A stretch of DNA of 64,000 bases from Phoronis australis (GCA_002633005.1 NMRA01000812.1:1-64000); one strand, 5' to 3'; shown: positions 3,101 to 33,300, counted from the stretch's first letter. Made by a program: numbers and translations. Notes: generated by a model from the letters alone, not told the origin.

Positions 3101-5768
3101 TCCGGTCATCCGTAACTTAATCAAATCAGGAGAAAAAATGCAAGTTTTACAGACCAATGAGAGAACCTAGAATGTCACAAGTACACTATAGTATACTTTC
3201 ACGTGACAAAGAAAATTTCGTGTCAATGTATCGCTCATTTTCCGCCACTCACAAGGATCTTTTTTGTGAAGCCACTGTTCGTCGAAGGAAAGTTGAGGCT
3301 CTTCTTCGTCCTGTTCCCCCTCTTCTTCTTCCTCAGTGGAGGGATTTTTTATAACCAGAGCGAAGAACGCAGCCAACAAGATCACCTAAAGTAATTTAAG
3401 GGGATATAGTTAGTTTTTTAACCAGTTCCATATTCGGAGAATGTGACCTTAGATCTTATACAGTAAATAAGTAAGTAATTTCTTGTTATAGTGACATGTG
3501 TTCAAATGAATTTAAACGATAAATTCGTAACAAAACAGGAACACCCAGCCCACCACGGAGCTTATAAGTCACTTTAGATACATGAAAAACAAAAAGAAAA
3601 AACGTAAGTACTCGCATTGCAAAAGGATCAAAAAGAGAACACAGTGAAAAAAGTGATCATATTCAAATAAATTTTTCCTTACTTCAATAAGTATTTTTGA
3701 TGAAAATTGCAGTTTTTCTGATAACATCTTTTTGTATAACTGAAATTAATTTACTTTTACAGCTTTCTGCACGAAATCGTGGATATTTCATTTCAATTTG
3801 AGAGTGAAAGGTGTTTATGGCTTCTAAGAAAAACAGACACTCAAACTGAAAATATACTTCAGTTCGACCTGGCCAGTGTAACAAAGACAGCAAATTTTAT
3901 ATCAAATTTCTGAGAACGAAAACGCCCAACCTCAATCAATAGCTGCAGGGTTCCGGGTCCAATTTGAGCAAGAATTGACCTACTAAGCCGAGTTAAGTCT
4001 AACTGCAGGTAAGGCTCAAATTCAGAAACATTCTTCATCTTAAGTTAACTTTGGTTTCGAACTGCATTTAAACAACAACCTATTACAAGCCAAATCATGC
4101 AGAATATTCTTGCAGTGAGAGAGATTAACTGAACATAATTTATGAAAACAATTCGAAATCCCTAACTCTTCAAAAATGTTCAAAACTTCAGAAGACCATT
4201 TATTTGTACAGTAGTCCCACTAAAATATTCGCTGTGTTAGTCAATCTTCCTTGAAATTAATAAACGATTCCACATTCTCAAAAGCTCATTTCTCCTCCTC
4301 ACGCTGGATAATTCCCATCCCATCTAACCCATAACAGAGTGACCAGGAGCGAATATGTGAACGCCTAAGAAAATCGACCGGCTCTTTTCCGAATGACATA
4401 GTCCTATAAACTAGAGCCATCTTCATTAGATATCGTCTTGACGGCATTGAGGTGACCCAGGAGGAGTGTTTTTGAATTTCCAATAGCCTGACCCAGTTTC
4501 CAGTGCTTTCATCGACTTTGCTCGTGCGTTTTGTAATGGCCGCTTTAACTTTATCCAAAGAAATCTCGTCTTCTGACACCGACACTGATGCTTTTTTCTG
4601 TGGCAGTTAAGACGTTTTCAACACAGAGAGACTCACATGAGAATAAACAACAAAGTTGAACCAAAAACTGTCTTAAAAGGCACTTGTGCAAAGCAATAGT
4701 GATGAAAATGACACAGAATTCCGAAGGTCGACCTCTCAGCTGCCGAGCACGCGCACCTACAACTGGACATTGCGTGGCTCAACTTAAAGCAACAATTACC
4801 CATGCGTTCTGTCAAAAATATTTTGGCCACTAAACGTTATATCAATTACCTCTCCTTACTTAATTTATAAGGGATTTCGGACTCGGGAAGAATTACTTCA
4901 GAATACGTTTATTAAGTTGCAGGTCACGGCGAGAACACTTCAGCTCAGCTCAGACTCGAAAGATCGAGATATTCAAATGTTGGATATGTTTAGGCGAACT
5001 GCTGCCACCAATTTCACATCTAACATATGACAATAATGTCGCTTTGGAAGCGTTTGGGAACTGGAAAGTTGTCTTGGACACGAGAACATAGTTTACAGTC
5101 GCTTTGATTACATAGTTCTGTCTTATGTACATGTACGGCTGTCAAGCCCTTTTGATTTAGCGATGCTGCAGCATGCATCATGCAATTTTAAAACAACTTA
5201 CCTTCAACGGCTGTGTGAAGAATACAGACATGAAGAAGGAGATCACCATGGAGGTTATCCATGCCCGCGTTTTCTCGTCACCCCATGTGATACCGTAGAA
5301 GAGTACAAATGTACCGGAAGCAAACACGGAGAGCCAAAGGACGATCCAAGAAGGGATGATACACCACCAAGGTAACTCGAATTTTTTCTTGCCTTGCTTT
5401 TTCTCAGGTGACTTTAGCGGCATCTCGACTTCAACTTCTGTAAAGGATGATGATGGGCGAGACTCGGCTGTAATGAACGAAAGTACCTCATCGCCATAAA
5501 TCATCATCATGATTCTTTTGGAGCTTTTTCGGTGCGATCGAAATTTGTTGTCGGTTGATTGAAGCTTGTAGCGTTGCCATATGTATGAGTAAAGAAACAA
5601 AGGATATACTTCAATGAAACAAGTACTTTTATAAGTGACTTGATTGTGGATTGGGAAAAGTCATAGTAGACCAAGTCTTCAAACATATTGCATACCTGTA
5701 CTGTTGATGTCTACCATAGAGTTAGCAACAGCGTTGTACTTCATCGCTTCTGAAATTCTGGNCACTAG
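1..5768 (-). CDS. Polycystin-1 family (PKD1L2-like) gene, internal/3' coding exons; continues past the window start
   Basis: Exons with GT-AG junctions and matching phases: ~5768-5696 (tentative, contains an n), 5467-5202, 3385-3253, 2268-2012, 482-311, 157-<1. They translate to ...KKKFELPWWCIIPSW...FYGITWGDEKTRAWITSMVISFFMSVFFTQPLK/VILLAAFFALVIK.../...REKRLKEIKMFDILREIIFYVIFLWLLIVVSHSNRD.../...FYTWLKEVFIPG...SRIMGHATIRQLRIRE/NCRM.... These are hallmark PKD1-family TM and TOP-domain motifs (LPWWC, QPLKV, RQLR). Confidence 0.9.
311..482 (-). CDS. PKD1-like exon
   Basis: IIKTDSFYTWLKEVFIPGVRASTWYNGG...RIMGHATIRQLRIRE; 172 nt, flanked by tttcag and gtaaat. Confidence 0.9.
650..785 (-). mobile_element. 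tRNA-derived SINE fragment
   Basis: The reverse complement reads ggaggcagtggggtggtctaatgggatagatgcccgcttcc...aaggtcgtgagttctagtccc, giving Pol III A-box-like and B-box-like motifs followed by a non-tRNA body. Confidence 0.6.
1182..1399. mobile_element. MITE-like element
   Basis: Imperfect terminal inverted repeats aggcgcacccag...ctgggtgcgcgc, with G-rich and C-rich subterminal tracts. Confidence 0.5.
2012..2268 (-). CDS. PKD1-like exon (first channel-domain TM helix)
   Basis: YGAAKPRKIAYKPPEPSVLEAAREKRLKEIKMFDILREIIFYVIFLWLLIVVSHSNRDPNAY...; 257 nt, AG/GT flanks. Confidence 0.9.
2367..2522. mobile_element. hAT-type MITE with 8-bp TSD
   Basis: TIRs cagtgctgtgttgg / ccactacagcactg; perfect 8-bp direct repeat CACAGAAC at 2359-2366 and 2523-2530; second copy at 51621-51786. 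Confidence 0.85.
3253..3385 (-). CDS. PKD1-like exon
   Basis: VILLAAFFALVIKNPSTEEEEEGEQDEEEPQLSFDEQWLHKKDP; 133 nt, flanked by tttag and gtgagt. Confidence 0.88.
5202..5467 (-). CDS. PKD1-like exon (two TM helices)
   Basis: AESRPSSS...LPWWCIIPSWIVLWLSVFASGTFVLFYGITWGDEKTRAWITSMVISFFMSVFFTQPLK; 266 nt, flanked by ttacag and gtaagt. Confidence 0.9.
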
Positions 5769-10044: not shown

Positions 10045-12719
10045 TGATACGTCGTAAAATGTAAGAATTTCGTAAAATGTAACAACTGTTACATTTTATG
10101 TCATTGTTACATTTTACATTGCTAGGCCTCTCCTAAAATGTAACGAGTTGTTACATTTTATGTAATTGTTACAATTTACGTAGAATGCACAAGCGAGAAA
10201 TGTACAATTGTTACATTTTACGAAAGCGACGTCATATTTTAGGAGTTTGCGTGGTATTTATCACACGGAGGAAAATCGTTCACACACTTAACGCCTTCTT
10301 TCTCGGATTGTATGAATGGAATTCTAGCAAATGTGTCAGGTCGAATTTATAGATGTGTCCCTTGCTTTCCATGGTTTTTTAACATGATAAATTTTGTGGC
10401 AAAGTTGAAGATATACAGCGTACAGCTTCAACTCCACACGAAAGAAGTTTCCTGGATCAGGTAACAAGTTTTTATTGTTAAAGCGTTCTTTGGTTGACGC
10501 TCACAGGTCAAAAACACACTTCTCTTGGTAAGCACAACAATGACATCGTATTTGGCTAATATTTTTCGTATTTTTTTGCTAACAAACGACAATATTTTTT
10601 TTCATGGAGAATTCAATTTCGGATGCCAGTTTGATAAAAAACACCAGTTTTAGTCCATGATAGTTTTGTGTATTTCAGCCAGTGTTTTATTGCCTTGGAG
10701 ACATCGCCAATGCAGTGATTGCCCTGCTCCACACAAAAGGAGCAATACCTAAATTTCTGTCTACCACCTTAGTTACGACTGACAATTTCTTAAAGACATT
10801 GTGGTGAAAGGAAATAAAAGCACGTACATGTATGTATTTGCTGACAAGCTGACAGATTTTGCCAAAGTAACAGCAAAAAAGGGCGAGCCAATAGTTTATA
10901 AATATGGCGGCCTAGTAACGTGCTATACAGTTTAAAAGCTGAAAGAAATGTCATTGATCATACATGTATGATGTCAAGCCTGTCTGAAATACTGGTGGTA
11001 ACAACAGGTCACACCGTGGCGCATACACGTGAAATGGGATGCCTAGCTAGGGAAAAAGAAAATATTTTGATCATTTTTCTCAAACCTGTTCTAGGGCAAT
11101 AGTCCAAAAAGCTGGCCTTCCGGACTATAAAAACTTGCACTTTCTCTTATCTTTTAAGATAAAATATGAATTAAAATTGCTATTTGGTCAATGTTCGTTA
11201 GTTCGAAGTACATAAAAATAAAGACAAAGATTGGACATTCTACTATTATTGGACGTGAAGTCACGTGTGTTATGAGGCGCCATTTATGTGTTACAGCTCG
11301 CTGATAAGATAATTTAGTACATTAACCTTTTGATACATTGCATTAAATGCTCATATTAAACATCGCTGACTTCGAAGTTTGTGGGTTTCGTTCCTTATTA
11401 TCCACTTTCAATAAAACATAGTTCAAATCATTATGTTGAATCACTGTTTTTCTGAGAATATTGGGGCCCGTTCTATATAAAATTGTTGCCTTTTTTGTAT
11501 ATCCGTAACCAGCTATTCTAATGACTCGGTGACTGCAACCGAGTAGTCGCTTGGTCTCAAAATATGGCTGCCTCCAAAGTTCAGCTTAAGGCAATTTTTG
11601 AACTGGGGGCCATGGAACGAGCTCCAGTTCTTTGACAAGGAATGTTTCCAACAAGAGACAAAACTGATTGCACGGTAGGTATCCTAACGTTTAGTTGTAA
11701 GTCTTGGGGAAAATATTGCGGTCTGAATTCAATTCTTCGTGGCAAACTACAGATGGATATAGTTTTATTTACAAACAATACAGTGCTTGCCGATAGTTAA
11801 AAATGATCAATTTTTGAAGTTGGTGCACGTCTTTAACAAGATTTTAAATATCAACCACCTCGTTTCCAAAAAGTAGCCCTACTCTGCATCCACAGCTGTC
11901 AAGACATTTCTCACAATATCGTTAAGGCTGAACGTAGGAACCCCTTTAAAATCCTTTTGGAACAGCACTCGCTGTCCACTATGGAAAACCCGATGAAAAC
12001 ATTAAACCATAAATGAGGTGGTTTTAAAATCTTTGAGAGCCATGATGTATTAGCACTTTGCTAAACATGTATTATGTGCTCGATAAATAAATTTAAAAAT
12101 ATTAATAATAACGATAACGAAAACGATACTTAGTAATAGCAGTGACAGTAGTTATAGCAGTAATAGTAGTAATAATAATATAAATCTAAAAAACTAATAG
12201 GTTGTCAAATTCATGTCATGTCAACTCAGAGGGCATTCCTGTAGAGAAAGTATACGAAAAAATGCATCCCAAAAGGGTGATTTTTCACAGAAAAAATACT
12301 CTCCAAAATGGTGCCATTTTCGGCAAAATTATGTCTTGAACAGAAGTCAATTTTTACACAAAGTTGCCTCTAAACAGGTCAATTTTTTGTCCGAGCCCCC
12401 TCTAAACGGGTACTAAGGTATTCAAATACTCCAGTACCCTCTGGCCTTGTCAGATACCCCTTGAATGTTCGTGATTTTGGTCAGTTTCTTTGCAATATGA
12501 CGTGGGTTTCGTAAAATATAACAATGGTATATTTCTCGCAAGCGCGTTCGACGTGAAATGTAACAACTACGGAAAATGTAACAGATCTTTACATTTTAGG
12601 AGAGGCTCAGCACCGTAAATTGTACCAATGAAAATGTAACAACTCTTACATTTTACGAAATTGTTACATTTTACGAAATTGTTACATTTTACGAAATTGT
12701 TACATTTTACGGCGTATCA
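10045..12719. mobile_element. Non-autonomous DNA transposon with long modular TIRs, TG..CA ends and 6-bp TSD
   Basis: Ends tgatacgtcgtaaaatgtaa / ttacattttacggcgtatca; ~200-bp imperfect TIRs built of (cgt)aaaatgtaacaa repeats; AATATG duplicated at 10039-10044 and 12720-12725; no transposase ORF seen. Confidence 0.85.
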
Positions 12720-13266
12720 AATATGTGGGTGGTGTGATTCGTGGAACAATTTATTGCATCCCTGCAATCACAGAGTGGATCAGAGTATGTTATATCATAG
12801 CTGTTCGGAGGGTTTTAATGCGAAGATTTAAGACGTATTTTGAATAAACTTAACAGGAAATGTAATAGCGACGATTCTCTAGACGTCGGGGAATGCGTGC
12901 TGATCCTTCAACGAAAATTGGCAAATATAGTATTGAGGGACCTTGGCACGGTGTCATTAAAATTGATATTGATATTAATTAGCCATTTACTTTCTACTAA
13001 AAAAACCAACATTAACTTTATTGGGTGTCTCAAGGTCTTTATTGCTTTGCCCATGATTGTAAGCACATGTATAATCTGCGAAGTGGTAACGTAAACAAGT
13101 TTTTTTTTAAATAAAGAGATAACAATAAAACGAAGATAGATACACACACATCTCTTCATGAATTACTACTGACAAAGAACACAATATAGAACACAGATCT
13201 GGTAAAATTATAAACGGAAACAAAATAAAATTCCATAGTGTAAAACATATCTTCGGGGTAAACGCT

Positions 13267-13475
13267 TCATTCTAAGAACCACTTGCAGTCATCGCCTTTG
13301 TTGGCAACACCTGTGAATTTGCCATTGCGAATCGCCAAGTATCTTTTGCCGAAGTTAGCGAAAAGGACGACGGCTCTTCTGCCGCTGGAGTCCGTTTCAT
13401 CGTTAGTAAGAATCCATTCCTCGGCGCCGTGGTGTGAACCTTTTGTGTACATGTAGTCTCCATTTGGGTCGTAAC
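13267..13475 (-). CDS. TIR gene last coding exon
   Basis: GYDPNGDYMYTKGSHHGAEEWILTND...LFANFGKRYLAIRNGKFTGVANKGDDCKWFLE*; acceptor tctcag. Confidence 0.88.
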
Positions 13476-16400
13476 CTGAGATGAGTATTTTGTTGCTAAA
13501 TTATATGCAAACAACTTTTTGTTATGTGTAACAATACAAACGCGAAAGTATCAACATTTGTCTGCGTCATCGTCGTATTTCACTGAACACCGAATCTAAC
13601 ATTCAAGCAGTTCTATCTCTCCGTAAATATGCAAATGAGCGTTTTCCTAAGGGCCATCCTATTCCCGATGCCTGAGCTCAAGTTCACGTGTGACGGTGTA
13701 ATAAAACTGTCTTTGTTAAACAACATTGTTTTTGACAACTTATTGTCATAACTCTGAACTCGCTCCTTGCTAACTTCTATAAAAAAGAGGTTTCAGGCTT
13801 GGGAGGAACCGACAATCCGCTTTTGCTTGAAACCAAGCACCACAAAGTTGCCTTGTCTCGGCAAGCCATGTGCTGAGCTAGGCCTTAAGCAAAAAAAGTC
13901 TTATAGGCCTTCCCAAGCACGAAAACACTTCTAATATTAGTATGGAACAAGTAAATACCAGAATTATAACGTAGAGTGGCCTACTTCCGCAGATAAATTA
14001 AGGAAGCTGGCTCCCCGGAAGCGCGACCAAAAACGCCGTTGCCATGCCGGCTTTCACCAACATTTTTCCTTCATAAATTGTAGTTACACTCCCTAAAATC
14101 ACCTTAGATGGGCAAGATAATTAAGCAACTGCCAATATTTTGACAGGGGTAGGGTTTACACAACCTTTGAGGCACATGTATTAAGTGAATGAGAGTGATC
14201 TTACAGAATTAAAGAATTTGTTATCTAAATCAAGTTCACGTTCGTTCAGCTGTTATTACCGTTTGACATTTGTTCGTGCGAAGAACAGTTTGTGTGTTTA
14301 TTTCCCAAAATGATTTTGGGATGACGGGAAATTGTTTTACTGGGAACTACGATGTTTTTCGTTTTCTAGGAATCCGGACATCACTTCTAAGAGGCACGAA
14401 AAATGACGTAGTTGGCTCTAACTGCAGAGAAACGATGAATGCATTTTTAGACTGAGCGCAGCTGACTCTCGCAGAATTCCCATGCTCCTCAGAAAGAGCA
14501 CTTGCTATTCAGCCGCGACACCTTTTGTTAAAATCGAACACAATTTTGAAATCCGAAAACACAGAAACTGTTATGTTGGATTGTTCTCCTCCAGCTATGT
14601 TGCAAACTCCTCAATAACTGTTCTGGAATTAGAAGAACACAATCAGTTTCCAGTTGAAACTGTATCTTGATTCTTTTATAACAGAATATGTTTGTAAACA
14701 TTTTGGGACATCCTGTAATTCTTTTCGTCGGTTGATAGGTCATAGGTCATAGGTTGTGGTGAATAGAATGTTCATCACGTTTATCCAGTTATTAAAGCTG
14801 GTCCTTTGAAAACGGAAGTCTGATTCTGCAAATTGGAGGAATTCCGAAAGAGTGCCTCACGAAGGAGCGGTCATTGACGGTCATTTGGATATTCCCTTAA
14901 GTTTAATGCAATACGATAAAGTACGAAAATTGAATGAACAGAACCACGTGTCCCGCCTTCTCATTTGCCAATGACATTTCTCAAACGTAACATGTTTTCA
15001 ACGCTGTTTCAGGAAACGAAGATACTTCCTAGCATTTTATTAGCCACTTCACAAAAACGTCAGGCAAAACTGAGAACATATAAATTGGACAGAGTGAGGC
15101 GTAACCACCACAATAGTTACCACTAACTCTTCGAAAAATCTGAACCCCTCCCCCGTCAAATTTGAGGAATGTTAGGTGAGGTAGAATGATAGATTTTGTC
15201 TACTCATTTTCAGTTAAATGACTCCAAGTAAACAGAATAATTAATCCTGTGTCAAGAGACCTCGAAAATAGTTCTTGAAACTTGAATTGGTCGCAAAAAG
15301 TAAATATATTTCCTTAGTTGTCGTGATCTATGTATCCGTATGAAGCAAAATTCCCGAGATGTTTGAATAAACAAGATTCGTACAATTTTCCAGAAATTTG
15401 ACTTTTTTCAAACTACTGAAAAAGCTTATGTGAAAGTACAAACCAACTTGAGTAAAATCATCAGTACAAATCGATTTTCGTGCCATGCCGTATTTCCCTG
15501 AATTTCATTTTGGCTGACAGGGTTCTTGAGCAGTGGCTCTTAAATCGATCAAACTTTAGGAAACCTTCATTACCTTGATTCACACAAAAATAATTCTGCG
15601 AACCATCGTAATTAGAGAAAACAAGAGGAAATATGCCAATGGTCAAATTTAAAATCTCCAAAAAGCACTCACTTGACGACTTTGGCCACGATGGTGATGT
15701 TTCGAGATTTGATTTCACTTACCGTTTATGTGTAGGTTAATCGCGAGCCAGGATCGAGATTCGCAAAGGATTCATTTGCAATCTCTTACTACGTATACAG
15801 CCGAACATACGTCATGGTACCGGTGACCGTGACAAGAATTCGATATTTTGAAATCATATGACAAATGTTGTTAAATGATAAATACTTATAAGAACTATGG
15901 GAAGACTTACATGTAATTTGAATTGAATTATGAAATCTGAGATAAAGGTAGATTTTCAACTTTCGTTTTGAAATTGCGACTTTGAAACATGGCACATTGA
16001 ATCACAGCTGGAAATTCTATATTTGAATCTGTAAATGAAAAATGACTTCATATCCGTGTAAACACGGTAGAATGCGTTTTGTAACTGAAAGGAATATCCA
16101 TGATTTCATGCGACAATTGAACTTTTGCATTTCGGCAAATGTGATAACTGAAGTGGCAAACCAAAATAATCCGATTTTGGGAGAAGACGCCTAAGAGTAA
16201 AACTAGGATTCAACATAAGAGTCTGAATCCTAGGTATCCCAAAGTAAGTGTTTGATCATAACTGTCATACACAGTGAATATTTATCCCTCACATCCAGGC
16301 ATGGGACAGAATTTTGACAAAAGGTCAACACTGTGGTGAAGATTTTATCGTATGTAAACATCCATCTCTCTTTTGAGTATTGGTGTGCTATCTTGGCTGC

Positions 16401-19400
16401 GATTGTTTGGTTGTAGGCTACCTTGCTTTAAGATAAAGCCATGTGCCGATGTTTATGGTGTCCAACAAGTGATTAAAATGTGTACGTTGAAATTCAGAAA
16501 ACATACCGAGGTATCCTTTGGTTTCATAGTTTTGGAAGAATCTTATATCTGAGCCCTTCTGCTTCACTTCTACCCAATAACTTGTCGTTTGAGGCTTGTC
16601 CGTTGTAGCCAGACTTGATCGGTTGCCGCTCTGAGCGTGGAACTTGACTTGTCCTGAAAACGATTACAAAGGAATACTCTGTATGTACAGTACCGTATCG
16701 ACTATTATACATTGTATTGAATAATGAAGCGACAAATACTGTGGAAAACTTTAAACGGGAAACATTAAAATTGGACGTGGTTTAAACAATGGTCGTCACC
16801 TAAAGTACAACGTTATCAACTTCATTTTGGTTGAATAGTGTTGGACTAATAACAGTGCCTTAATTGTTTGTGAGTTGCCTTACGCTTAAGAAAGTGAATA
16901 ATTTTAAACAAATTGACATCAACAAATTAAAAAGTAATACAAGCACCAGTACCCCAGTTCAATTATTGTACATCTTGAAGACGTTTACATATGTGCCAAC
17001 AAACCTTTCAATGTATTTCCAATTTTGTTTCCATGACTAAAATTGTGATTTTGTAAATGTTTAACAGATACATGTAGCCAATATTTTATTTGGATATTTA
17101 CACAAACGGTTTTATCCCGGCTAAAGTCAGACGCACAGATGACAATATCAAACACATGTACATGCACCAGATTAACCTTTTAAAAAGAACTGCAGAACTT
17201 TACCCTATATTATTATATCCACTCTGGTCATGTTACAATAATGGGATTGCGGGATTTTATCAGACATTCGTGTAAAACCAACGGACTCTGCATTCTGTTG
17301 CATAATCTCGCTGGCCTGTAAAACACATTTGATGGACGCTCGCTGTCAGTATCGTATTTTTCTACGCAGCTTTGAGCTCGACGCCAACCGACAGGGCACA
17401 CGCAAGACAAGTAGTGAATTGATGGGTGAGAGAGGACGAGCTTACACCATGGCAGATCCAGATTTCCTCATGCCAATTAATACTCCTCGTCACGTTTTGA
17501 TTAACTGAACGCTTTTGTAACAGCTAGTATGTGTAGATAATTGTAAGCTTCATTTGAAATTTGGTTTACTTACCAGTTTCAGCCAGAAATTTGCCAGTGA
17601 TGGCATGCCTGAAAGCTCTGCCAGGATTTTTCTTCAACACCACCTTTGGCGTCGGTGTTTTTTGCGCTTTGGGTAGAGGCTTTGGGGCCCCTACTTTGAC
17701 AATGTCACCTGCCTGGGAAATAATTTCTTTAGCCAAAGATTCGACGCGATTCGCCATATTGTTGTTATCCCTGAAAGGATGTGATAAGTTTCGTTATTTG
17801 CTATGACAGGTCAGACAAAATCCTTACAATACATGTTCCACTGTTTGTAAACTCCTGATGTCAAAAGAATACTTCACATGTTTTAGTCGGGGTACGTATT
17901 TGAAGAATTGAAACTTACAGTACATGTATATGTAAGAATTATCAGTTTCCTTGTATGCCAAATGTTGGTCGCATCACGTGACCAAACTTAAGTCTGAAAA
18001 GACCCCTATCTTCACCAGGCTCAAACCTGGGACTTTCTGATAACCATTCAGACGCTCTAGTCATCCGGGTTATCGGAACCACCGGTCGATTGCAGTGCGA
18101 TTGGATTTCAATAATCGATAGATGGCCCTGATAGTTGAGTGATCTAGAGTGCCTGCACGGTTAGCAAAAGTCCCGTATTCGAGCCTGGTCGGGATAGCTA
18201 TCTTTTCAGAGAAAACTATAGGTCACAGGGTGTGACGAATAGATGGCGTGTAAGAAGACTAGTAGTTTGCTTAGCGTGATGTCTCTTCCTAGACATGCAT
18301 ACGATATATGCCCACTCTAGTTTCGTTTTCATGAGGTTTTGACCCAATTGTTTTTTTGGACGAGTAGACTACCATAGCGTATTTTTGGGTAAACATCCCA
18401 TACAACCATTGAACGAGAGCAACTTGCCTTATTTCATATGCTTAAAATTAATCAAAACTGGCATTTGAACTACACGTTTCAACCAATTCAGTTGTCACTG
18501 GCTGATTGGGAGCCCAGGGTGTAAACACGCATTTCGGGTATTTCATCTACACTGTATAGTGTTTTTCAAGTGAACTTTGGGAAGGTTGTCAGTTCGTAAA
18601 CATCCGATCTGAATACCACAGGTAACTTGATGATGTGAAAAAGATATGACGGAAAACTGCGTTTGTCACTTGAGTGCATCGGAATTAAACTCACTTGTCC
18701 ATTCCACATTCTTTTTAGTGCCAATACTACTAAGTAACCTTCACAAAAATACAAAAATGGCATTCATTGAATAGGTGTATAAATAAGTAATTTGGTGGTC
18801 GACATCCAGAGAGCACAAACTGGAATAAAAGTCTCTGAGTAGTTTACGGATCTGGATAAACATCGGTGGTCATGGGCTCTGGTTAGACGTTTCTAAGTTG
18901 TATGTGACGTCACCGGATGTTTACGAGCCGAAAACCGTCCCTCAAGGTATTTGAAAACGACAGCAGCACAGCAGTTGACATTCATTTCACAATAATCTAA
19001 TAAAATACACTGTTTGTGGTTGGCAGTAGTTTGACTCGAGATGCAAATTATAGGCGCCGTCTGTCAGTCATTGGTTGGATTGCAGCGTCGAATAGCGCTG
19101 ACTAAAAAGTCCGAGTCTGGAGTGGCTGGCTCTGTTGCAGTTGTCACAGGTGTGTAGTAGATCCTGTTGAGTAGGAGTAGAGGCTGCTCTCTGGCGGCTG
19201 TGTTCTTTAAGTAGTGTCCGTCATCTTTGCGCACTGGTTCTAATTCACGACTTGACACTTGATAGTGTTTGTATTGCTTCTGTTAGATCGTCAAAATGTG
19301 ATTGATTTAGGATACATTGTCAGGGATAGCGTAACATTGTTCTTTACCTGAAATCAATCCAGAGAGCTCCAGCTGTTATTATACCCAGCCAACCGCTTGC

Positions 19401-21468
19401 TTTGAAGCTCTTAGCTGCCATTATAGGTACTATAGCTTTGTCCTGTTGGTCGGCATAGTTTAACTCTTTCTTGCAATTCTTTGACTCCTGAAAGACAAAA
19501 CGACGAAGTAAATTAATTCAATAGTTAATTCTTACTTGGCCTTTTACAACCAATCAGATTAAATACCTTTTTATAAAAGATTAATTAACTCAGAAATAAT
19601 GAGTCTATAATAGAAACTACTTTTAATGTTTTTATAAAACCCTGCAGTGACCTCCGAATAATGACAATTTCATGGATGTGAACAACTGGCAGTGATCTAC
19701 CACAGGAAAGTCTCAATGGAATGCCCTAACCTGGTATTTTGGAGTCATAAACGGGCAGACGACAGCAGCGCCCTCCACGCCAGCAGCCATTCTGAAATGA
19801 GAAAAAAAACACCCAGTGAAAGAACCTTCTAGTGCCTTGCTACATATATGAAGCATCTAGCTATGGGTTAACGCCATTCAACGGATTTCCAAAATAGCTC
19901 TCGCAGCCAGAATGGGTACCGTTTCTTCTGAAACAAGGATATTTTTTCGGATTCTAGTTTACTAGGCCTGGCACAAGTAACTTGGGCCTGTAAGTCGAAA
20001 ATGTGTTCAAAATGTCGTTAATTTATCAATATTTGTCTTTAAATGGATAGTTAAAATATTTCAAGCTAGTCAAATGCCAGAGACTTCTATTTGGTAGGTC
20101 AACTGCCAACAAAGTGAAGCCTGGTCAGTTTCAAATTCACGACTTCGGATCTGTGTGCCGCGACCTTCAGATACCATTTCTCAAAACAACACTTTTCCCG
20201 AAAGAGCCACCAGAGGGCACGCCTTCATTTTGGTGGAAAGGAAGTCAGTTTAATTATGCTTTTAAAAACAGCCTTTGGCTGGGATCCTGTGAGAATCGAT
20301 TTAATTTGGATGAACAGAGCTATACATGTATTTGTGAGACCCGGAAGTTATACACCTATACAAAGTAGCACCTGTATTCGGATTTAAAAGCCAAAGGGTA
20401 TGTGTAAAATATTTGTACAAAATCAAAGAGCAAGTCTTTAAAACAGCCTGTGAGTTAGGTTCTTCTACAGTAGTTTCATGGTTTGACTTACTTATGCAAA
20501 AGCGGTTATTTTGAAGGGGTTTTCTTTCGACCAATAAGTAATTAATGAAAGATAGGACTACTAAGAACTGAGTCACAAAGTTTTAAACTCTGATTAAATA
20601 AATGAAGTGTGAATTTACAGTGAACTGTTAAGACCATCTGCGCCCATGTGCGAAAAAACGTCTTCAAAATTTGACGCACTACTTAGGAAAAATACGGACA
20701 TGTACGATACATAGTGTTATTCATTGAAAAGTCAATATATATTGTGCATATGCTTCGTATAAATGACTTACTGAATGACGAAAATCATTTTGGTACTGAA
20801 ATTTTAAAAACGAAAATTGATACAAAGAAACCTTTTACGTTATATACCATTAATAAGAGCGGTCAAAAGATGTCTTAGAACCTCATCTATAAGCATTGAA
20901 AGACTCAAAAATCGTTCCTCGAAGTGTATGTTTGCTGTTGAATTACTTACTTACTTAATAGCTCAACTTACAAAATCATAAATGATCTGTTATGTGAAAA
21001 TGACATAACGCCAACTTCACAGTGAACGTACTTGACAAAGGGTTTCCACTTAGATGATAATACATGAAAAATATTATCTAATTCCCTTTAATTGTACACT
21101 AGACTCTTCATTGCCATGGTTATAATACAGAACATTACGCAGGATTTTGACTACCAATTCGTTCTTTTTTGAAATAAATATATCTGATTGTGAAAACTAT
21201 ACTTTCTGAAATGTTGAAAGAGACACTCTACAACATACAGTACATGTATATTTTTTAATGCATGCCATTGAAAATTTTCTGTCAGATGTTAGTTTGTAAT
21301 AACGTACAGTGTTTGCACTTACGAGTCGTTCACGTTGCCTGACATTCCTCCTTGCATGTCCATCCAAACTGGCATACCCATGGCGTTCAGGTGATCATAA
21401 ACCTGCTTGACCAACGACTGGATATCCCATTGGTATGACAACATCACGTGCTTGGAACTGGACGCCAT
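13267..21468 (-). CDS. TIR domain (TIR_2/SARM1-like) + C-terminal beta-trefoil protein, 6 exons, 299 aa
   Basis: Exons 21468-21323, 19791-19731, 19487-19348, 17770-17574, 16653-16507 and 13475-13267 total 900 nt, are all GT-AG and stay in frame to TGA. TIR motifs: MLSYQW, WMD, MAAGVE, FMTPKYQESKNCKKELNYA, IVPI, GWLG, LWIDF. The C-terminus has three x-x-(F/Y)-L...W repeats. Confidence 0.9.
16507..16653 (-). CDS. TIR gene coding exon 5 (not in the supplied ORF frames)
   Basis: GQVKFHAQSGNRSSLATTDKPQTTSYWVEVKQKGSDIRFFQNYETKGYL; phase 1-1, flanked by ttttcag and gtatgt. Confidence 0.85.
17574..17770 (-). CDS. TIR gene coding exon 4 (end of TIR, Pro/Lys linker, start of trefoil)
   Basis: DNNNMANRVESLAKEIISQAGD...PKPLPKAQKTPTPK...RAFRHAITGKFLAET; flanked by tttcag and gtaagt. 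Confidence 0.88.
17957..18247. repeat. Inverted pair of degenerate tRNA-like sequences
   Basis: The right arm ggccctgatagttgagtgatctagagtgcc...gtcccgtattcgagcctggtc...tcttttcaga mirrors the reverse complement of the left arm ggttccgataacccggatgactagagcgtc...gtcccaggtttgagcctggtg...tcttttcaga; spacer ~40 bp. Confidence 0.65.
19348..19487 (-). CDS. TIR gene coding exon 3 (carries the catalytic-position Glu)
   Basis: ESKNCKKELNYADQQDKAIVPIMAAKSFKASGWLGIITAGALWIDF(R); flanked by tttcag and gtaaag. Confidence 0.9.
19731..19791 (-). CDS. TIR gene coding exon 2
   Basis: (S)MAAGVEGAAVVCPFMTPKYQ; flanked by tttcag and gttagg. Confidence 0.9.
21323..21468 (-). CDS. TIR gene coding exon 1
   Basis: MASSSKHVMLSYQWDIQSLVKQVYDHLNAMGMPVWMDMQGGMSGNVND; donor gtaagt. 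Confidence 0.9.
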
Positions 21469-23899: not shown

Positions 23900-26800
23900 C
23901 CGATAAATCACCGCTTATAGCTCATTTTAATATCACACCACTCCAAGACACATGGGCAGATACAGGAAACGAGTTTTGCGTCAGATGGGTATGTACATGT
24001 ATACATGTATGTTTCAGCAAACCAACAGCGAAAATATAACCCAATATGAGGAACTCGGTGGACTGTTGAATTTTGTAAAGAGTGAATTATCTGTTTATGT
24101 GTGTGAGGTTGCATCAGACTCAGAAAACATGAATTGGATAAAATTTGATGTTGGTTTAAATATGCCACCTCTGTATTTAGGGAATGTTTACATGTATATT
24201 TCCCCTCAAGGTTATCAGCACGTAAACGAACCACCCTCGACACAACTGAATCCCTGATTGCAATTTGAGTCCTGTCATCCGAATAGTGGTTTCATGCTGT
24301 GCGGCGATTTCAATGCGCAAACAGCCACACTAGACAAATTTGCCAACGATGAAACTGCTGTTCAATTTCTTGAAAACATTTTATATGATAAGGGATGGTG
24401 TACAGATACCACACAGAGTGTCTCAGGAAAGGAGTGTAATAATTATTGTCATGAGTTATTGTACCTTTGTAAAAGCCGTAAAATTAGAATTTTAAATGGA
24501 CACTGTGGTAGCGATAAAGAAAGCGGTAAAGTTACTTTGATGAATACAAATGGAAGTAGTGTAGTAGACAATGTCATGGTAAATGAGGAACTTCTGACTT
24601 CAGTCAGTCATTTTCAAGTTGGTGAGAAAATTGCGTGTCTCCGATCATTTTTCGTTAGCACTTGCTTTAAGCTGAGAAGTACATCATAACCTTCAAGTAA
24701 ATAACAATAGATGGGAAACTCATGACTTAGATAGAAAAATAAACAAAGCCATAATCTGGAAAGAAAAAAGTAAAAACAATGATTTTGAGTGCTCACAGTT
24801 CACTAAAGATAACGGACGCCTGGAAAATGTTGCACGAAATCTTCAAAATAACATTTGTTCTGTTAATGAGGCCTTGGATAAAATGTATAGTTTGGTTTTA
24901 AATTCTATTACAAGCTCTGGAATGATAAAATCTGAACCATCGAAACGTAGATCAAAACATTTAACATGGTTTGACAGGGAATGTCATAATCAAAAGTTTC
25001 TGGTACGTACATGTTGTTATTCAAGGAAATATAGAAGGCATGGTTCCGATTAAAATTTTGCCATGGCTGAATATAGAAACTAAGAAGCGATATAAAAAAA
25101 TGATCAAAACTAAGCAAAAATATTCCGAGAAAGACTAACCAAATCATTGTTAGACTCATCTACATGTACATGTACATGTATGAGCGAGAACAAAAAACAG
25201 TCTTGGAACTGAATATTATCCACAGACAGTGGTATGATAGTTTTAAAAATGTCTATACGTCTCAGATTGGAGATTCACATAGATCCATGCCTACGTGTAT
25301 GTGGAACAATTTAACCCGAATCTACATGTATGAGTCGGTGATACCTTACATAATACGGAGAACCAGTCAGTCTTTAATTGAATTTAACTGTAGATAAATG
25401 TACATGTATTAATGATGTGAAACTGGGTAAAGCGGCTGGAAATGATAGCATTTTTTGGAGTTTTTCAAGTTCACAACAACTACATTTTAAGAATAGCTCG
25501 TTTGTCGATCTGTACAATAAAAATTTTGATACAGGGAACTATCCGTCTTAATGGAATTCAGGTGGAATAAAGTCTGTGTTAAAATTTGAAGTTAGGAATG
25601 ACCCAGATAACTACAAAGATATCACACTGTTACAGGTGGCAGACAAAATTTTCGCCCGGCTGTTAGGTAACCGACTCCACCCACGGGCAGATGAAAACAA
25701 TACTCTGTGTGAGGCTCAAGGTGGCTTCAGGAAGGGATATTTCACAGTTAATAACATGTTTATTCTATATACACTAATTAACAACTAATTACTGAAACAC
25801 AGAGGCCTTTTCTTTTGTTTTTTATCGACTTCAAAAAAGCGAGAGCTAGGGCCTTAAGTACAAAATGTCAAGTTTTGGAATACATGGAAAATGCATTAAA
25901 TTCTAAACGACATGTATAAAATGTGAACTCATGCATTTTGCTGAATGGGGACGGTTACGTAACCGATTTCTTCCAGCGTAGGAAGGGAGTAAGACAAGGA
26001 TGTGGAAAGAGATTTACAAAATTAACAAGGCTCGTGTGTAACTATTGGTCTAGTTAATTTTTATTCAGTCTTGTCCGCCGATGACTTGGCTCTCGTTGCA
26101 GAAACCGTTGTTGCTATGCAAAGATTAATTACCTAACTGGAAGAATGTTGTATAAAATGGAAGTTTCATGTGAACATGATGTCAAAAACAAAGGGTACAG
26201 TCTTTTCATGAAGAGGAATATATAAGAAATTATTAAAAGTGGAAATTATTAGCAAACAGTGCCAACGATTTCAGAGTATTTAGGAATCAAAATTGACTTC
26301 CCATGGTGTGTTTTACAAAGGCGCAGCCGAAAACTTCAGCTGATAAAGCGGCAAAAGCTAGATTAAATACATTGACGTTCCTGAGCAAGTGTGGTTGTAA
26401 TTGCTCGATGTAAAAGTATGCTGTATGGTCCTGAGATTTGGGGATTTCATCCTGCACAAGACATTGGAATGGTACACAATAAATTTTGTAATTTCTTACT
26501 GCGACGTGGACAGTACATGTATGTTTCAACCGTAGCAGTGAAAGGAGAGCTTGGGAGAGTGACGATGAACAAACATTTATATTGAGAATTGTTGAATACT
26601 GGTTAAAGTTCAAGTGAAAATGCCAAATCACCGTTATGTTAGCGTGTGCTATAATATTCAACATGAAGTGGCTGAACAAAAGAAGTGTTGGTGGGCTCTA
26701 AACACCACTGCCTCATTTACTTGTATATGTGATGAAGTTCAGTAACGATACTGCAGTAGTGGAAAGGTGGAATCAAAAATGCACTTTCTTTTCGAATATA

Positions 26801-30300: not shown

Positions 30301-33300
30301 TCCCCATGTATTGTCCATCGTCGTCAGTCATGCCGGCGCCGATGATGAAATGTCCACCTAAAGGAGTCTTGTATATTATCAAACACTCAGGCGAGACCTT
30401 AAAAGCAATTCCATATAAAAAACAGATAGTAGGCTATATATGCAAAATCCCCAATTTTGAAACTTAGCACATCAGCTGGACTTGTCAAAAGAAACCTGAT
30501 CCTGATTTTTTAAGAGTTTCCGAGTTTTTTTAACCCTTTTTACGACCACTTTGTACTTTTTCTGAAAAATAGCAAATAAAAGTACTGGGAAGTAGGTAAC
30601 TTTTTGTCAGCAACAACACATCATCGCTTCACGCTATTGAAAAGATACTATATAGCAGAAAGAAGAAAGAATAACATACGAGAAAAATTAGTTCGGATGG
30701 ATTTATTGATTTTTGATGTCCTCCCATTTTAGCCTAAAAAATGTCATTTTCACTGCTTATTATTAAGGCCATTCTTACGCATAATTAGCGCTCTCCCAAA
30801 TCTATATCGGACTCTTTTGGAATATGAGTAAACTTCCATCTGTTACTGCTTTCTTTGCTCAGCCCAACGCAAGAATAAACAATCTTGTCTCTTTCATAGT
30901 TTTTGTGCAGTCAGTTTTTTTACCTAACTCACTTACATACTTTTCTGCCAATCTGTGACTGTCAGTTAGACTAAAAGACTCTAGGAGGCGCTACTCGAGT
31001 GTGCAATTATCTATCGACCAAGATGCCAAATAGAACAAATATCAGTCGTTTTGCTACATCAGTGACGAAGAAGATCATGGGAAGCTATATGAGTGATTTT
31101 TTCTTCGCGGATTTTCAGTTTTGCTGGTGCAAAAATAAAAATCTATTATAGGATTAGAGAACTCAAAAAAGTCAATTTTAATGTACTGGTGAGTTATTAA
31201 TGCAACCCCTTTCACCATCTCATACTTCGGAGAAGCAGGTTTTATTCTTATTAAGGGTGCCCATTCCCCCTTGCTTGGTCAGTTTTTGAACACCGTAATG
31301 GACTAAGAATGCCACGCACTGCCTGCAGTGCATGCTGGTCCAATTTCAGACCTCCTTGACAAGTCCCTGTACATGTATATGCGCCTGAAAAAGTCCTCTC
31401 AAACTGTTAGCAAAGTTCATACTAAAACTAATCAAGATCTTCGAGATCACAAGTGAAAAGAGGACGGTGGATACGAGCAGAAGTGTCGTGTTATTGGACA
31501 TACAAAGGGTCAAGCAATGCTTCTTGGACTGTACAAATGCGGCCGAGCATGGTGACAGTACGCCAATGGAATTTGCAATTTCAGAAAAATAACAGGTACG
31601 GATATTTAGGATTGAAAACATAATACTTTCAGTGATATCCAAGTTACCGGCTTTCCAAACCAGTATTTAAACATTTGGGTGTTGTTGCGACTTACCAGCT
31701 AAAAGTTTCACAATATGTAAATTCCGTTCATGCGGCGGACTCAAAACCACAGTTTTTTGAAGGTAGGCTAGGTTTAGTGTATGATGCATTTCTACACAAT
31801 ACTTCACAAAACCGCAAAATACGTCGAATCCATCCCAAAACGGGAACATGTCACTCTTTTTTTAATCGAAAGCTATTAAGCAAATCACATAAAAATCCGT
31901 TAAAAAACTTAGAAGTAAACGAGGAAAACAAAAAAATGAAATTGCCACAAGGGTGCACAGATTCATTGGAAAGTCATCGTCGTCCGTTGTTAACTTCACA
32001 TCAATACACTTACTAAAATTTATCAAGATCCTGCAGTGGGTTTAAGAGATAAAGCTATGGGCGCAAAAAACAAAACTACCACTAGGAGGTGCCACAGTAG
32101 TCGATGTCGTTGGAAAATCATCATTAACCGTCCTCTTCACACTAAGAACATGTATGCTAATTTTCAAAATTATGCTTAGAGTGGTTTGGTTGACAGAGGT
32201 GCGGACGCCAAAAACAGACTAGGGAACAATAAAAATGGCCCTTAGATGGCGTAAAATATGTCAAATCATCCAAAAACGCCGTTTCTGTAATAGAAAGCTG
32301 TTTGCCAAATTTCATAAATTTCTATCAAGGAACAGGGGAAAATGGAAAAATTGAAATTGCCACTAGGGGGCACAGCGTTTGTTAGATCCGTCTGAAAGTC
32401 GTCTTCGTCCGCTGACAACTTCATATATATACACTAACTAAATTTAATATAGATCCTGCAATAGAGAAGTTCATGTTAACTCAACCTTTCGTCTTACTCA
32501 ACAAGACATCATCAGGATATGTACAGTAGGACAACAAGTGTCGATATTCTTTCAAGTCGCATCCATGTGGTGCAATGAGAGTGAGAGATACAGAGATAGT
32601 AAGCGGGTCATTACCATAGTTGCAGGGTCACTGAGCTCTGCATGTTATTGAGAGAACCAGTAGCATGCTGATCCTGAATGGCCAATGACTCCTTGATATA
32701 CAGTAATTCATTAGCATGTTTCTCACAAATACTACTGACTGAATTGGCTTGATGTTTGTTGCTAATACAATGCCTATAAATGTTACATTTGTCGGATGTG
32801 TTGTGTTCGTTCAGCGTGTCACAGAGGCGTCTCTGGGTGAGTCCAATATAGAATTCCTTACATTTGTCACATTCAACCACATACACAACATTGCTTCTAT
32901 TTAATAAAGGGATGGGTGATTTCAGTTTACAAAGCATATTGGAAAGTTTGCCAAGAGGTTTGGAAACAACTACTAGCTGAACGGCTGGGTATATGCAATT
33001 TATAAGGCGAGATAACTGACGTTTCAATTTTAAACTACTTGGTCCAGTGTAGCCAAGAGAAAAAACGTTCTTTTTCTCAGGTCCACTAACAGCTACATTA
33101 GCCGCCTCAGTCATTTTAGAAATGAAGTGTCTTTTGCAATTATTCAAAAATTTAAGAGGGTAACCATTGGCACGCAGTAACTGGAAAATCCTAGCTACGT
33201 CACTATCAAAAATTTAATTGGGAGAACAAATTCAGCATGCTACTGATTCTCTCAATGACAGGCAGAGCTCAGTGACCCTGCAACTATGGTAATGACCCGC

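Follow-up and report, generated by a model that had tools for sequence, protein, structure and literature searches.

The gene and its transcripts

The locus studied here lies in a window of 64 kb (the whole stretch of Phoronis australis DNA that was analysed) and raises two questions: whether a TIR domain and a C-terminal domain of another fold are joined in one protein, and what such a protein would do. The initial annotation had proposed six phase-consistent exons encoding 299 amino acids, and the results agreed with it: six minus-strand exons (21468..13267) formed an open frame of 900 nt, i.e., 299 codons plus the stop; all five introns started with GT and ended with AG; the phases were consistent across the six exons; and the translation aligned end to end with homologues (see below). 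The coding features were the following:

21323..21468, minus strand: coding exon 1, aa 1-49; ATG at 21468-21466; GT donor; TIR beta-A strand, alpha-A helix and BB-loop region
19731..19791, minus strand: coding exon 2, aa 49-69; TIR beta-B/beta-C region; placed by AG acceptor, GT donor and phase; collinear with homologues
19348..19487, minus strand: coding exon 3, aa 70-116; SKNCKKEL helix with Asn73 (19476-19478) and Glu77 (19464-19466), the candidate catalytic residue
17574-17770, minus strand: exon 4 as a whole, spanning the last TIR helix, the linker and the first trefoil strands
17713..17770, minus strand: start of exon 4, aa 116-135; last TIR helix (helix 118-136 in the model of homologue P0001)
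17623..17712, minus strand: middle of exon 4, aa 136-165; Pro/Lys-rich linker, unconserved
17574..17622, minus strand: end of exon 4, aa 166-182; first beta-trefoil strands (RAFRH..GKFLAE); the trefoil matches cover model residues 166-301
16507..16653, minus strand: coding exon 5, aa 182-231; remainder of trefoil subdomain 1 (..TSYW, Trp208) and start of subdomain 2 (FFQNYETKGYLG)
13267..13475, minus strand: coding exon 6, aa 231-299 and stop (13267-13269); trefoil subdomains 2-3 (..AEEW, Trp251; ..DCKW, Trp296)

A second in-frame ATG was located 11 codons upstream (21501-21499); the homologues begin where the 21468 ATG lies. The translation contained SKNCKKELNYA together with AFRHAITGKFLAE..SYW, FFQNYETKGYLGYD..EEW and LFANFGKRYLAIR..CKW, and exon 6 alone, used as query, matched 43 database proteins with 57-76% identity. 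A tblastn search with the 299-aa model found no further copies within the 64-kb window, where the gene is single copy.

Twenty RNA reads, from three RNA runs with the same species label, were present in 8 of the 9 bins that contain exons and in 3 of the 21 that do not; the exon 6 bin and the 3' flank are among the parts covered. The first mate was on the plus strand in all 20, as expected for a minus-strand RNA provided that the library is of the usual stranded type. No splice joint reached the listing threshold of 3 reads in these three runs (20 reads).

Conservation and distribution of the family

In BLASTP searches the 299-aa protein was collinear, over residues 5-299 approximately, with about 30 full-length database proteins at 54-73% identity, and it scored 506 bits against a profile built from 29 homologues. 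The 29 sequences share 78 invariant columns, of which the window protein keeps 77; the exception is residue 246, where Tyr is replaced by His. These data bear on the reading that no such protein is made, the six-exon model being artefactual or the gene a decaying pseudogene. The small number of RNA reads, with no spliced read listed, would be compatible with it, but the frame is open through six exons with canonical splice sites, nearly all family-invariant residues are present, the family profile is matched over its full length, and the reads concentrate in exon-bearing bins; this reading is highly improbable. The gene is intact and encodes a TIR and beta-trefoil protein, a point that we consider confirmed.

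Among the matches listed, the carriers were cnidarians, annelids, a flatworm, a nemertean, an acoel, a filasterean and many teleosts, and in every case the annotation goes no further than uncharacterised or TIR-domain protein; the same matches included no named tetrapods, arthropods, nematodes, molluscs or echinoderms and showed no lineage expansions. No relatives came up in a motif scan covering 185,579 prokaryote species genomes, and the literature searched yielded no paper on a TIR and beta-trefoil family. Identity to the window protein in nine full-length homologues was 56-77% over the TIR, 37-75% over the trefoil and 13-43% over the linker (64%, 68% and 23%, respectively, for Nematostella), and both domains were about 57-68% identical between the window protein, the cnidarians and the filasterean. 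For the trefoil, the values were 65-68% to cnidarians, annelid and nemertean and 57% to the filasterean. The TIR and the trefoil are under strong purifying selection that is absent from the linker. The gene is no lineage oddity: its family is an old orthologue group, annotated but unstudied, that is widespread though patchily distributed and strongly conserved between cnidarians and teleost fish. Since both domains are highly conserved, a conserved ligand or partner fits better than a fast-evolving pathogen receptor.

Domain layout

The protein is organized as a TIR_2 domain (residues 1-135), a Pro/Lys linker (136-165) and a beta-trefoil (166-299). The linker, described as Pro/Lys-rich in the initial annotation, indeed has 6 Pro and 7 Lys in its 30 residues. 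The earlier statement that signal peptide and transmembrane segment are missing was also upheld: the Kyte-Doolittle 19-residue mean peaks at 1.23, and therefore no membrane segment is present, and a signal peptide would not fit ahead of the TIR beta-A strand, which begins at residue 8.

The proposal that this is not a TLR, IL-1R, MyD88 or SARM1 architecture stood as well, on domain content and hydropathy. A SARM1 orthologue, defined by ARM repeats and two SAM domains ahead of the TIR, was ruled out: the TIR begins at residue 8, and Pfam found no ARM or SAM. The same hydropathy maximum and a Pfam search that found no LRR, Ig ectodomain or death domain ruled out TLR, IL-1R and MyD88 types, defined by a transmembrane segment with LRR or Ig ectodomain, or by a death domain.

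The TIR domain and its candidate NADase site

The assignment of the N-terminal domain to TIR_2, and of a Glu to the NADase catalytic position, had both been claimed from the sequence and both were supported. The Pfam TIR_2 model (PF13676, gathering score 28 bits) was matched above the cut-off by all 29 full-length homologues (best E 1.8e-22), vs weak matches to the receptor-type TIR model in 7/29. P0001, to which the window protein is 77% identical over the TIR, scored 70.3 bits. Single exons of the window also matched TIR_2: exon 1 at profile positions 1-32 (E 2.2e-4, 22.1 bits) and exon 3 at positions 64-108 (E 0.048, 14.6 bits).

Folds were taken from a model of P0001, a homologue with 73% identity, rather than of the window protein (AlphaFold2, pLDDT 90.5, pTM 0.87). 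Residues 2-130 of this model, which has a flavodoxin-like TIR fold, aligned with the SARM1 TIR over 125 residues (Z 15.6, rmsd 1.9 A, 22% identity), and the best structural TIR match was the Hydra TRR-2 receptor TIR (Z 16.2, 124 residues aligned), whose sequence matched the family profile with E 0.0035. Because TRR-2, of the signalling type, matches as well as SARM1, the fold cannot separate an enzyme from an adaptor. The solved sequences closest to the family profile were TIR enzymes, Cat1 being the best (E 7e-5) and the SARM1 TIR following (E 2.4e-3); bacterial defence TIR effectors in PADLOC matched weakly (SAVED-TIR 9e-7, ThsB 3e-5).

A profile alignment to SARM1 and Cat1 placed Glu77 (K-E-L) opposite SARM1 Glu642 (H-K-E-I), and this Glu was retained in 80/80 family members. 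The counts came from 81 proteins of 270-330 aa; the 81st, a kinase-TIR protein, is not a member and was left out. At the positions of SARM1 Y568, D594 and G601 the family has Y, D and G, with D34 of P0001 (the D594 position) nearly invariant and the Gly of the BB-loop G(N/D)(I/V)N identical in 29/29 rows; the F603 position is Ile, and R569/R570 correspond to Gln/Trp. Four residues before the Glu, where SARM1 and Cat1 carry Trp, 46 members have Asn, 34 (teleosts) have Ser and none of the 80 has Trp; the window protein has Asn73. No TIR NADase is known to dispense with this Trp. Its absence at the SARM1 W638 position weakens the NADase reading. In the excerpted kinetics of PMC8266388, SARM1 W638A is among the mutants with kcat lowered about 100- to 400-fold, and its Km is listed as raised.

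The missing pocket Trp and the top structural rank of the Hydra receptor TIR would suit a non-catalytic adaptor, whose TIR only makes contacts with the TIRs of Toll/IL-1R-like receptors or MyD88-type adaptors, with the trefoil recruiting a conserved partner protein or glycoconjugate and no NAD+ chemistry involved. Against this, the Glu at the E642 position is kept throughout the family, from filasterean to teleosts, and Pfam prefers TIR_2 over the receptor-type model. We also count against it that an E642-type Glu is not known to be generally retained in mammalian adaptor TIRs. In its favour, conserved invertebrate TIR proteins are discussed as possible adaptors in portions of PMC6321704 and PMC5094078. 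On balance, an adaptor role seems possible, if somewhat unlikely.

The C-terminal beta-trefoil

A beta-trefoil had been predicted for the C-terminal part, and the modelling of P0001 bore this out. The model presented 12 strands, in three pseudo-symmetric units, within residues 168-300; Foldseek aligned it with Symfoil/FGF1, SeviL and BEL lectin (E about 1e-7, probability 1.00, TM 0.72-0.86), and VIA-align gave Z 15-19 against at least 40 trefoil entries, among them Symfoil (FGF1-derived, 19.1), fascin-1 (18.2), FGF4 (17.2), SeviL (17.1) and the IP3-receptor core (15.7). Residues 166-299 are thus predicted, on the homologue's model, to fold as a beta-trefoil, with Trp208, Trp251 and Trp296 lying one per subdomain, 43 and 45 residues apart.

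The type of trefoil is less easily assigned: lectin-, fascin- and FGF-type trefoils tie structurally, fascin-1 being within about 1-2 Z units. No Pfam family spanned the domain in the 29 full-length homologues scanned. Among these, the R-type lectin models Ricin_B_lectin (PF00652) and RicinB_lectin_2 (PF14200) reached at best E 0.096 (RicinB_lectin_2), in 1/29, and none of the Fascin, FRG1 and FGF models gave a significant match (best FGF, E 0.14, also in 1/29); a divergent member, P0146, scored 19.5 bits vs the R-type lectin cut-off of 25.6. Of the (QxW)3 motif, the Q is missing in all three subdomains and the W is kept, TSYW, AEEW and DC(V/I/K)W being the commonest forms. SeviL was the only beta-trefoil entry among the PDB sequence matches, with E 0.48 for the single sequence and 0.15 for the profile, neither of them significant. 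TIRs 47-56% identical to that of the window are fused elsewhere to RicinB_lectin_2 (P0112) and to Tectonin (P0121).

The conservation of the trefoil from filasterean to cnidarians, annelid and nemertean, the 78 invariant columns, the single copy in the window, the lack of lineage expansions among the matches listed, and the fascin-1 and IP3-receptor scores would all suit a housekeeping or cell-state sensor as opposed to a pathogen sensor, whose trefoil would bind an endogenous target (actin; inositol phosphate or another metabolite; or a cytosolic glycan on damaged organelles) while its TIR would deplete NAD+ locally. However, the structural scores favour neither fascin nor MIR over lectins, related TIRs are paired with lectin-type domains, and the absence from named tetrapods, arthropods, nematodes, molluscs and echinoderms among the matches listed is unusual for a core function; we consider such a role unlikely. 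Models for it are fascin (actin), the MIR/IP3-receptor trefoils (inositol phosphate) and SARM1 in injured axons (NAD+ depletion).

Proposed mechanism

Of the interpretation given in the initial annotation, the gene model, the two folds and the placing of the Glu were supported; NAD+ cleavage, clustering driven by a ligand and an immune role are proposals. The reading that we prefer, with a probability of about 0.4, is that ligand binding by the trefoil controls self-association of the TIR and thereby NAD+ cleavage by Glu77. The trefoil would likely bind a conserved ligand, for which the first guess is a glycan or small molecule; binding would govern the self-association of the TIR, tethered by the flexible linker; and the self-associated TIR would cleave NAD+ with Glu77 or make an NAD-derived signal. 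The output may be immune, cell-death or metabolic. This proposal is favoured by the TIR enzymes being the closest solved sequences, by the Glu of all 80 members and by the fusion of related TIRs to sugar-binding-type modules; the Asn/Ser at the Trp position, the differences at F603 and R569/R570, and a trefoil that fits no lectin family model speak against it.

A broader version, which we hold to be distinctly unlikely, would make the protein an ancient one-component cytosolic sensor predating animals, in which a trefoil of a dedicated, previously undescribed family reads a conserved glycan or metabolite and switches on the TIR enzyme, giving an NAD-derived signal or NAD+ depletion. If true, plant TIR-only proteins and bacterial Thoeris or Cat1 would have their animal equivalent in this sensor, which would have hardly changed between filastereans or cnidarians and teleost fish. 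Its active site, with Asn/Ser where other TIR NADases have Trp, might yield a different product.

Comparison with known systems

The SARM1 TIR (PDB 6o0q, 9hq0 and others) shares with the window protein the TIR_2-type fold, the E642 Glu and the residues at Y568, D594 and G601. SARM1 has ARM and SAM domains, with the ARM region as N-terminal regulator, whereas the window protein has neither and carries a C-terminal beta-trefoil as its proposed regulator; the W638, F603, R569 and R570 positions also differ, and the NADase function is here a candidate one.

R-type lectins such as mussel SeviL (PDB 6lf1/6lf2) have the same fold (Foldseek E 3.7e-7) and a Trp closing each subdomain, but the window trefoil has no significant Pfam Ricin_B or RicinB_lectin_2 match and lacks the Q of QxW. 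In SeviL the weak sequence match falls on residues 46-128, outside the alpha subdomain (21-39), which binds asialo-GM1 according to an extract of PMC7744527. SeviL is a free dimeric lectin, while the window trefoil is fused to a TIR. Fascin and FGF-type trefoils tie with lectins in structural score, but at 9-15% identity and with no Pfam match.

Arabidopsis PP2-A5 likewise joins an N-terminal TIR and a C-terminal lectin-type domain in a single protein. It belongs to another kingdom, its lectin domain has a PP2 beta-sandwich fold instead of a trefoil, and the likeness considered here is one of architecture; in the section of the review PMC12355970 on PP2-A5 (Santamaria et al. 2019), TIR catalysis and carbohydrate recognition are both given as uncharacterised. 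CRISPR-associated Cat1, CBASS TIR-SAVED and Thoeris ThsB also unite a TIR and a ligand-binding domain in one protein, but these prokaryotic effectors match weakly and in the TIR only, their sensors (CARF, SAVED) being unrelated to the trefoil. Finally, ecTIR-DC, compared by description only from parts of PMC6321704 and PMC5549309, is likewise a cytosolic TIR family found across invertebrate phyla, with function not known. The class is described in that portion of PMC6321704 as absent from vertebrates; unlike ecTIR-DC as so described, the TIR and trefoil family is present in many teleosts.

Gene structure and transcription

We examined a minus-strand gene whose initial annotation proposed six phase-consistent exons encoding a 299-residue protein with neither a signal peptide nor a transmembrane segment. 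That description was correct, and the gene is genuine and intact. Its coding exons are as follows:

21468-21323, minus strand, exon 1
19791-19731, minus strand, exon 2
19487-19348, minus strand, exon 3
17770-17574, minus strand, exon 4
16653-16507, minus strand, exon 5
13475-13267, minus strand, exon 6

All the introns start with GT and end with AG, the exon phases agree, and the reading frame of 900 nt gives 299 residues and a stop codon; the peptides originally quoted are all present. There is an in-frame ATG 11 codons upstream, and the starts of the homologues coincide with the ATG at 21468. Comparison with 30 full-length database proteins showed that the spliced product (the window protein) is collinear with them over residues ~5-299, at 54-73% identity. 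A profile of 29 homologues matched it at 506 bits, and it retained 77 of the 78 columns that are invariant among them; that the six-exon model is an artefact or a pseudogene is very unlikely. The maximum 19-residue hydropathy mean was 1.23 and the first TIR strand begins at residue 8, so the protein lacks both a membrane segment and a signal peptide. One copy of the gene is present within the 64-kb window.

Three runs of raw RNA reads labelled with the same species were used, about a fifth of each being read. A total of 20 reads mapped to the gene region, in 8 of the 9 exon-bearing bins and in 3 of the 21 other bins, one of these three being the 3' flank. In all of them the first mate was on the plus strand, which fits minus-strand RNA if the library is of the usual stranded type. 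No splice joint of the gene reached the listing threshold among these 20 reads from the three runs. The reads hint at expression and exon use, but do not prove the junctions. In one run, X2, the differences A>C and T>G at 13207 and 13226, immediately 3' of the stop codon, occurred in 3/3 reads; transcripts therefore run beyond the stop codon, and the differences are probably 3' UTR alleles. Note that a few X2 reads lay within introns 5 and 3 (15256-15562 and 18019-18325, depth 0.98 and 0.71), and could derive from precursor RNA before splicing, from a repeat or from a different transcript.

Other features of the window were the following:

12646-12711, 3.7 perfect tandem copies of an 18-bp unit, ~550 bp 3' of the stop codon of the gene
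24258-25053, plus strand, open frame with a below-cut-off Exo_endo_phos_2 (endonuclease/reverse-transcriptase) match, E 6.5e-5
32611-33213, minus strand, open frame with a below-cut-off GIY-YIG nuclease match, E 0.0031
5178-5660, minus strand, open frame of 160 aa without a Pfam match, hydrophobic in stretches that resemble membrane segments

Judging by their matches, the frames at 24258-25053 and 32611-33213 are probably decayed retroelement copies, the latter possibly Penelope-like. The frame at 5178-5660 had Atlas matches to unnamed eukaryotic clusters only (0.90), and is possibly one exon of an adjacent gene for a membrane protein.

Domain organization and predicted fold

The protein consists of a TIR_2 domain (residues 1-135), a Pro/Lys linker (136-165) and a C-terminal domain (166-299). 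Pfam TIR_2 was found in 29/29 homologues (best E 1.8e-22), and exons 1 and 3, each scanned by itself, matched TIR_2, in agreement with the N-terminal TIR domain first described. Beyond residue ~130 Pfam gave no significant match in the homologues, and none of its models covers the C-terminal domain of these 29 proteins. For the structural prediction, the closest homologue, P0001 (73% identity overall, 77% in the TIR and 75% in the C-terminal domain), was modelled in place of the window protein, which is a joined sequence, with the 29-member family alignment as input.

The AF2 model of P0001 (mean pLDDT 90.5, pTM 0.87) has 12 beta-strands in residues 168-300. The top rows of a Foldseek search of the PDB were beta-trefoils only (Symfoil/FGF1 designs, SeviL and BEL lectin; E about 1e-7, target TM 0.72-0.86). 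VIA-align, which compared 48,161 chains, placed Symfoil (Z 19.1), fascin-1 (18.2) and SeviL (17.1) against the same domain, with many lectins, FGFs and MIR domains at Z 15-18. On account of these matches the C-terminal domain is a beta-trefoil, as the initial annotation had it. In the predicted structure the kind of trefoil is not separable, since lectin, fascin, FGF and MIR types all match. The pTM of 0.87 hints at a fixed arrangement of TIR and trefoil in the model; a two-copy homo-oligomer prediction of P0001, run without controls, scored 0.00 and is evidence neither way.

The trefoil as a sequence family

With the trefoil-only fragment P0024 as query, phmmer gave 46 matches at E <= 1e-3 among 1.84 billion representative sequences. 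Nearly all of them were pieces of the same TIR+trefoil family; the others included P0146 and P0043, both described below, and a few short unnamed proteins. The long matches P0161, P0176 and P0177, repeat proteins of MucBP, cadherin-like and fn3 types, were judged spurious. Among solved trefoil structures, the only one linked by sequence was the mussel lectin SeviL, through a non-significant match (E 0.15-0.48) that spans its beta and gamma subdomains only. According to the accessible part of PMC7744527, the sugar-binding part of SeviL is the alpha subdomain; we rejected a transfer of the SeviL sugar site to the window trefoil because the aligned part lacks the binding subdomain. Each subdomain closes with a Trp (208, 251 and 296) and the Q of the R-type QxW is absent; by its sequence, the window trefoil fails the tests for R-type lectins. 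Protein Atlas features were also tried for typing the trefoil, and RicinB_lectin_2, Fascin/FRG1 and Inhibitor_I66 all scored 0.94-0.96, with no discrimination.

TIRs 47-56% identical to the window TIR are fused to RicinB_lectin_2 (P0112, 511 aa) or to Tectonin (P0121, 445 aa), so by analogy a sugar-type sensor is a reasonable guess for the window trefoil. A divergent TIR+trefoil protein, P0146 (344 aa), has a hydrophobic stretch before the TIR, read from the sequence, that looks like a membrane anchor. The records of P0112, P0121 and P0146 come from metagenomes or assemblies.

The putative catalytic site

The solved sequences nearest to the family profile were TIR enzymes, Cat1 (E 7e-5) and the SARM1 TIR (2.4e-3). 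In the profile alignment the Glu of the family K-K-E-L (Glu77) sits on the Glu of SARM1 H-K-E-I, numbered E642 in the accessible text of PMC8266388, and the positions of SARM1 Y568, D594 and G601 are Y, D and G in the family. We surveyed 81 database entries between 270 and 330 aa long. One, a kinase-TIR protein, was not a member; Glu occupied the E642 position in 80/80 family members, which upholds the earlier assignment of a Glu to the NADase catalytic position. A TIR needs this Glu for NADase activity, but having it does not prove that activity.

Four residues before the Glu, at the position of SARM1 W638 (Asn73 here), the family carries Asn in 46 members, Ser in 34 (teleosts) and Trp in 0/80, whereas Cat1 and SARM1 both carry Trp. 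The same text of PMC8266388 lists W638A among the SARM1 mutants with a kcat ~100- to 400-fold lower and a raised Km. The SARM1 F603 and R569/R570 positions also differ, and the family's predicted pocket, as aligned, departs from the canonical one. This partly undercuts the reading of the protein as a predicted NADase sensor, which is plausible. The main alternative, a non-catalytic TIR adaptor, is favoured by the missing Trp. It is also favoured by the structural comparison, in which the N-terminal domain of the model matched a receptor-type TIR, that of Hydra TRR-2 (Z 16.2), as well as it matched the SARM1 TIR (Z 15.6, rmsd 1.9 Å over 125 residues, 22% identity). We regard the adaptor as possible, if on the whole unlikely.

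Distribution and conservation of the family

Members were found in anthozoans (Nematostella, Exaiptasia, Porites, Desmophyllum and Oculina), the scyphozoan Rhopilema, the hydrozoan Clytia, the annelids Owenia and Dimorphilus, the flatworm Macrostomum, the nemertean Tubulanus, the acoel Convolutriloba and about fifty teleosts ranging from elopomorphs to percomorphs (P0060-P0110, P0179-P0182). A filasterean member, Pigoraptor chileana P0048, comes from an EukProt transcriptome and may be contamination. All the named members bear the label uncharacterised or TIR domain-containing. Among the 120 matches listed and the 111 of a second search, no tetrapod, mollusc, arthropod, nematode, echinoderm or other invertebrate deuterostome was named, nor any non-teleost fish (shark, gar, sturgeon), ostariophysan (zebrafish, carp) or salmonid; the vertebrate members among the matches listed were teleosts only. 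A narrow motif scan of prokaryote genome contigs with two peptide patterns gave 138 pattern matches and 0 confirmed relatives.

A quick maximum-likelihood tree (43 rows) grouped the teleosts into one clade with a long stem (0.72), within which the branching follows fish phylogeny. The window protein paired with P0001 (support 98), and the order of the invertebrate phyla was not resolved. The teleost pattern would follow from either numerous separate losses or an ancient transfer into the stem of the teleosts, and the patchy distribution poses a question for comparative genomics, repeated loss versus gene transfer.

Identity of the window protein to three homologues, by domain
Nematostella: TIR 64%, linker 23%, trefoil 68%
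Pigoraptor: TIR 57%, linker 27%, trefoil 57%
Megalops: TIR 61%, linker 27%, trefoil 48%

These identities indicate strong constraint on the TIR and the trefoil, and none such on the linker. A pathogen receptor would not usually be so highly conserved, a point in favour of a third reading, an enzyme whose ligand would be endogenous (actin, an inositol phosphate, a metabolite or a damage-exposed glycan); we consider this one improbable.

A second Pigoraptor chileana protein, P0043, carries the same trefoil behind a different N-terminus of ~110 aa without a TIR. This N-terminus had no Pfam match and, read from the sequence, gives a SAM-like impression; the single-sequence AF2 model of P0043 (pLDDT 39.4) was unusable. 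If the Pigoraptor records are not contamination, the family would predate animals and the trefoil would be a movable module. The TIR+trefoil proteins form an unstudied family that is widespread and strongly conserved, not a one-off.

Proposed mechanism and relation to known TIR systems

From the observed folds, Glu and selection pattern we infer, with a probability of about 0.4, a one-protein sensor-effector for which the ligand, oligomerisation, chemistry and biological role are predicted. The trefoil would bind a conserved ligand, binding would alter the self-association of the protein, and the assembled TIRs would act on NAD+ via Glu77.

To our knowledge, NAD+ cleavage is established for no animal TIR other than that of SARM1. 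The family offers a compact test case for animal TIR enzymes, with 300 aa, two domains and predicted solubility; the Glu at the catalytic position has been preserved for >600 million years, and the carriers include the laboratory animals Nematostella, Exaiptasia, Clytia and Macrostomum and several farmed fish. There being no Pfam model for the trefoil, Pfam-based surveys would score these proteins as 'TIR-only' and overlook the sensor half. The accessible parts of papers on cnidarian TIR repertoires (PMC5094078) use Pfam-based classes and include TIR-only proteins, with no mention there of a C-terminal trefoil. We did not find the family in the literature examined on animal TIRs, TIR NADases and TIR-trefoil fusions; it may be one of the ecTIR-DC families of Gerdol et al. 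2017.

The window protein lies outside the SARM1, TLR, IL-1R and MyD88 architectures, as had been noted from the sequence. In its predicted way of working, the protein would resemble the ligand-controlled TIR enzymes SARM1, Cat1, TIR-SAVED and the plant TIR proteins, among them the Arabidopsis TIR-lectin PP2-A5 (PMC12355970).
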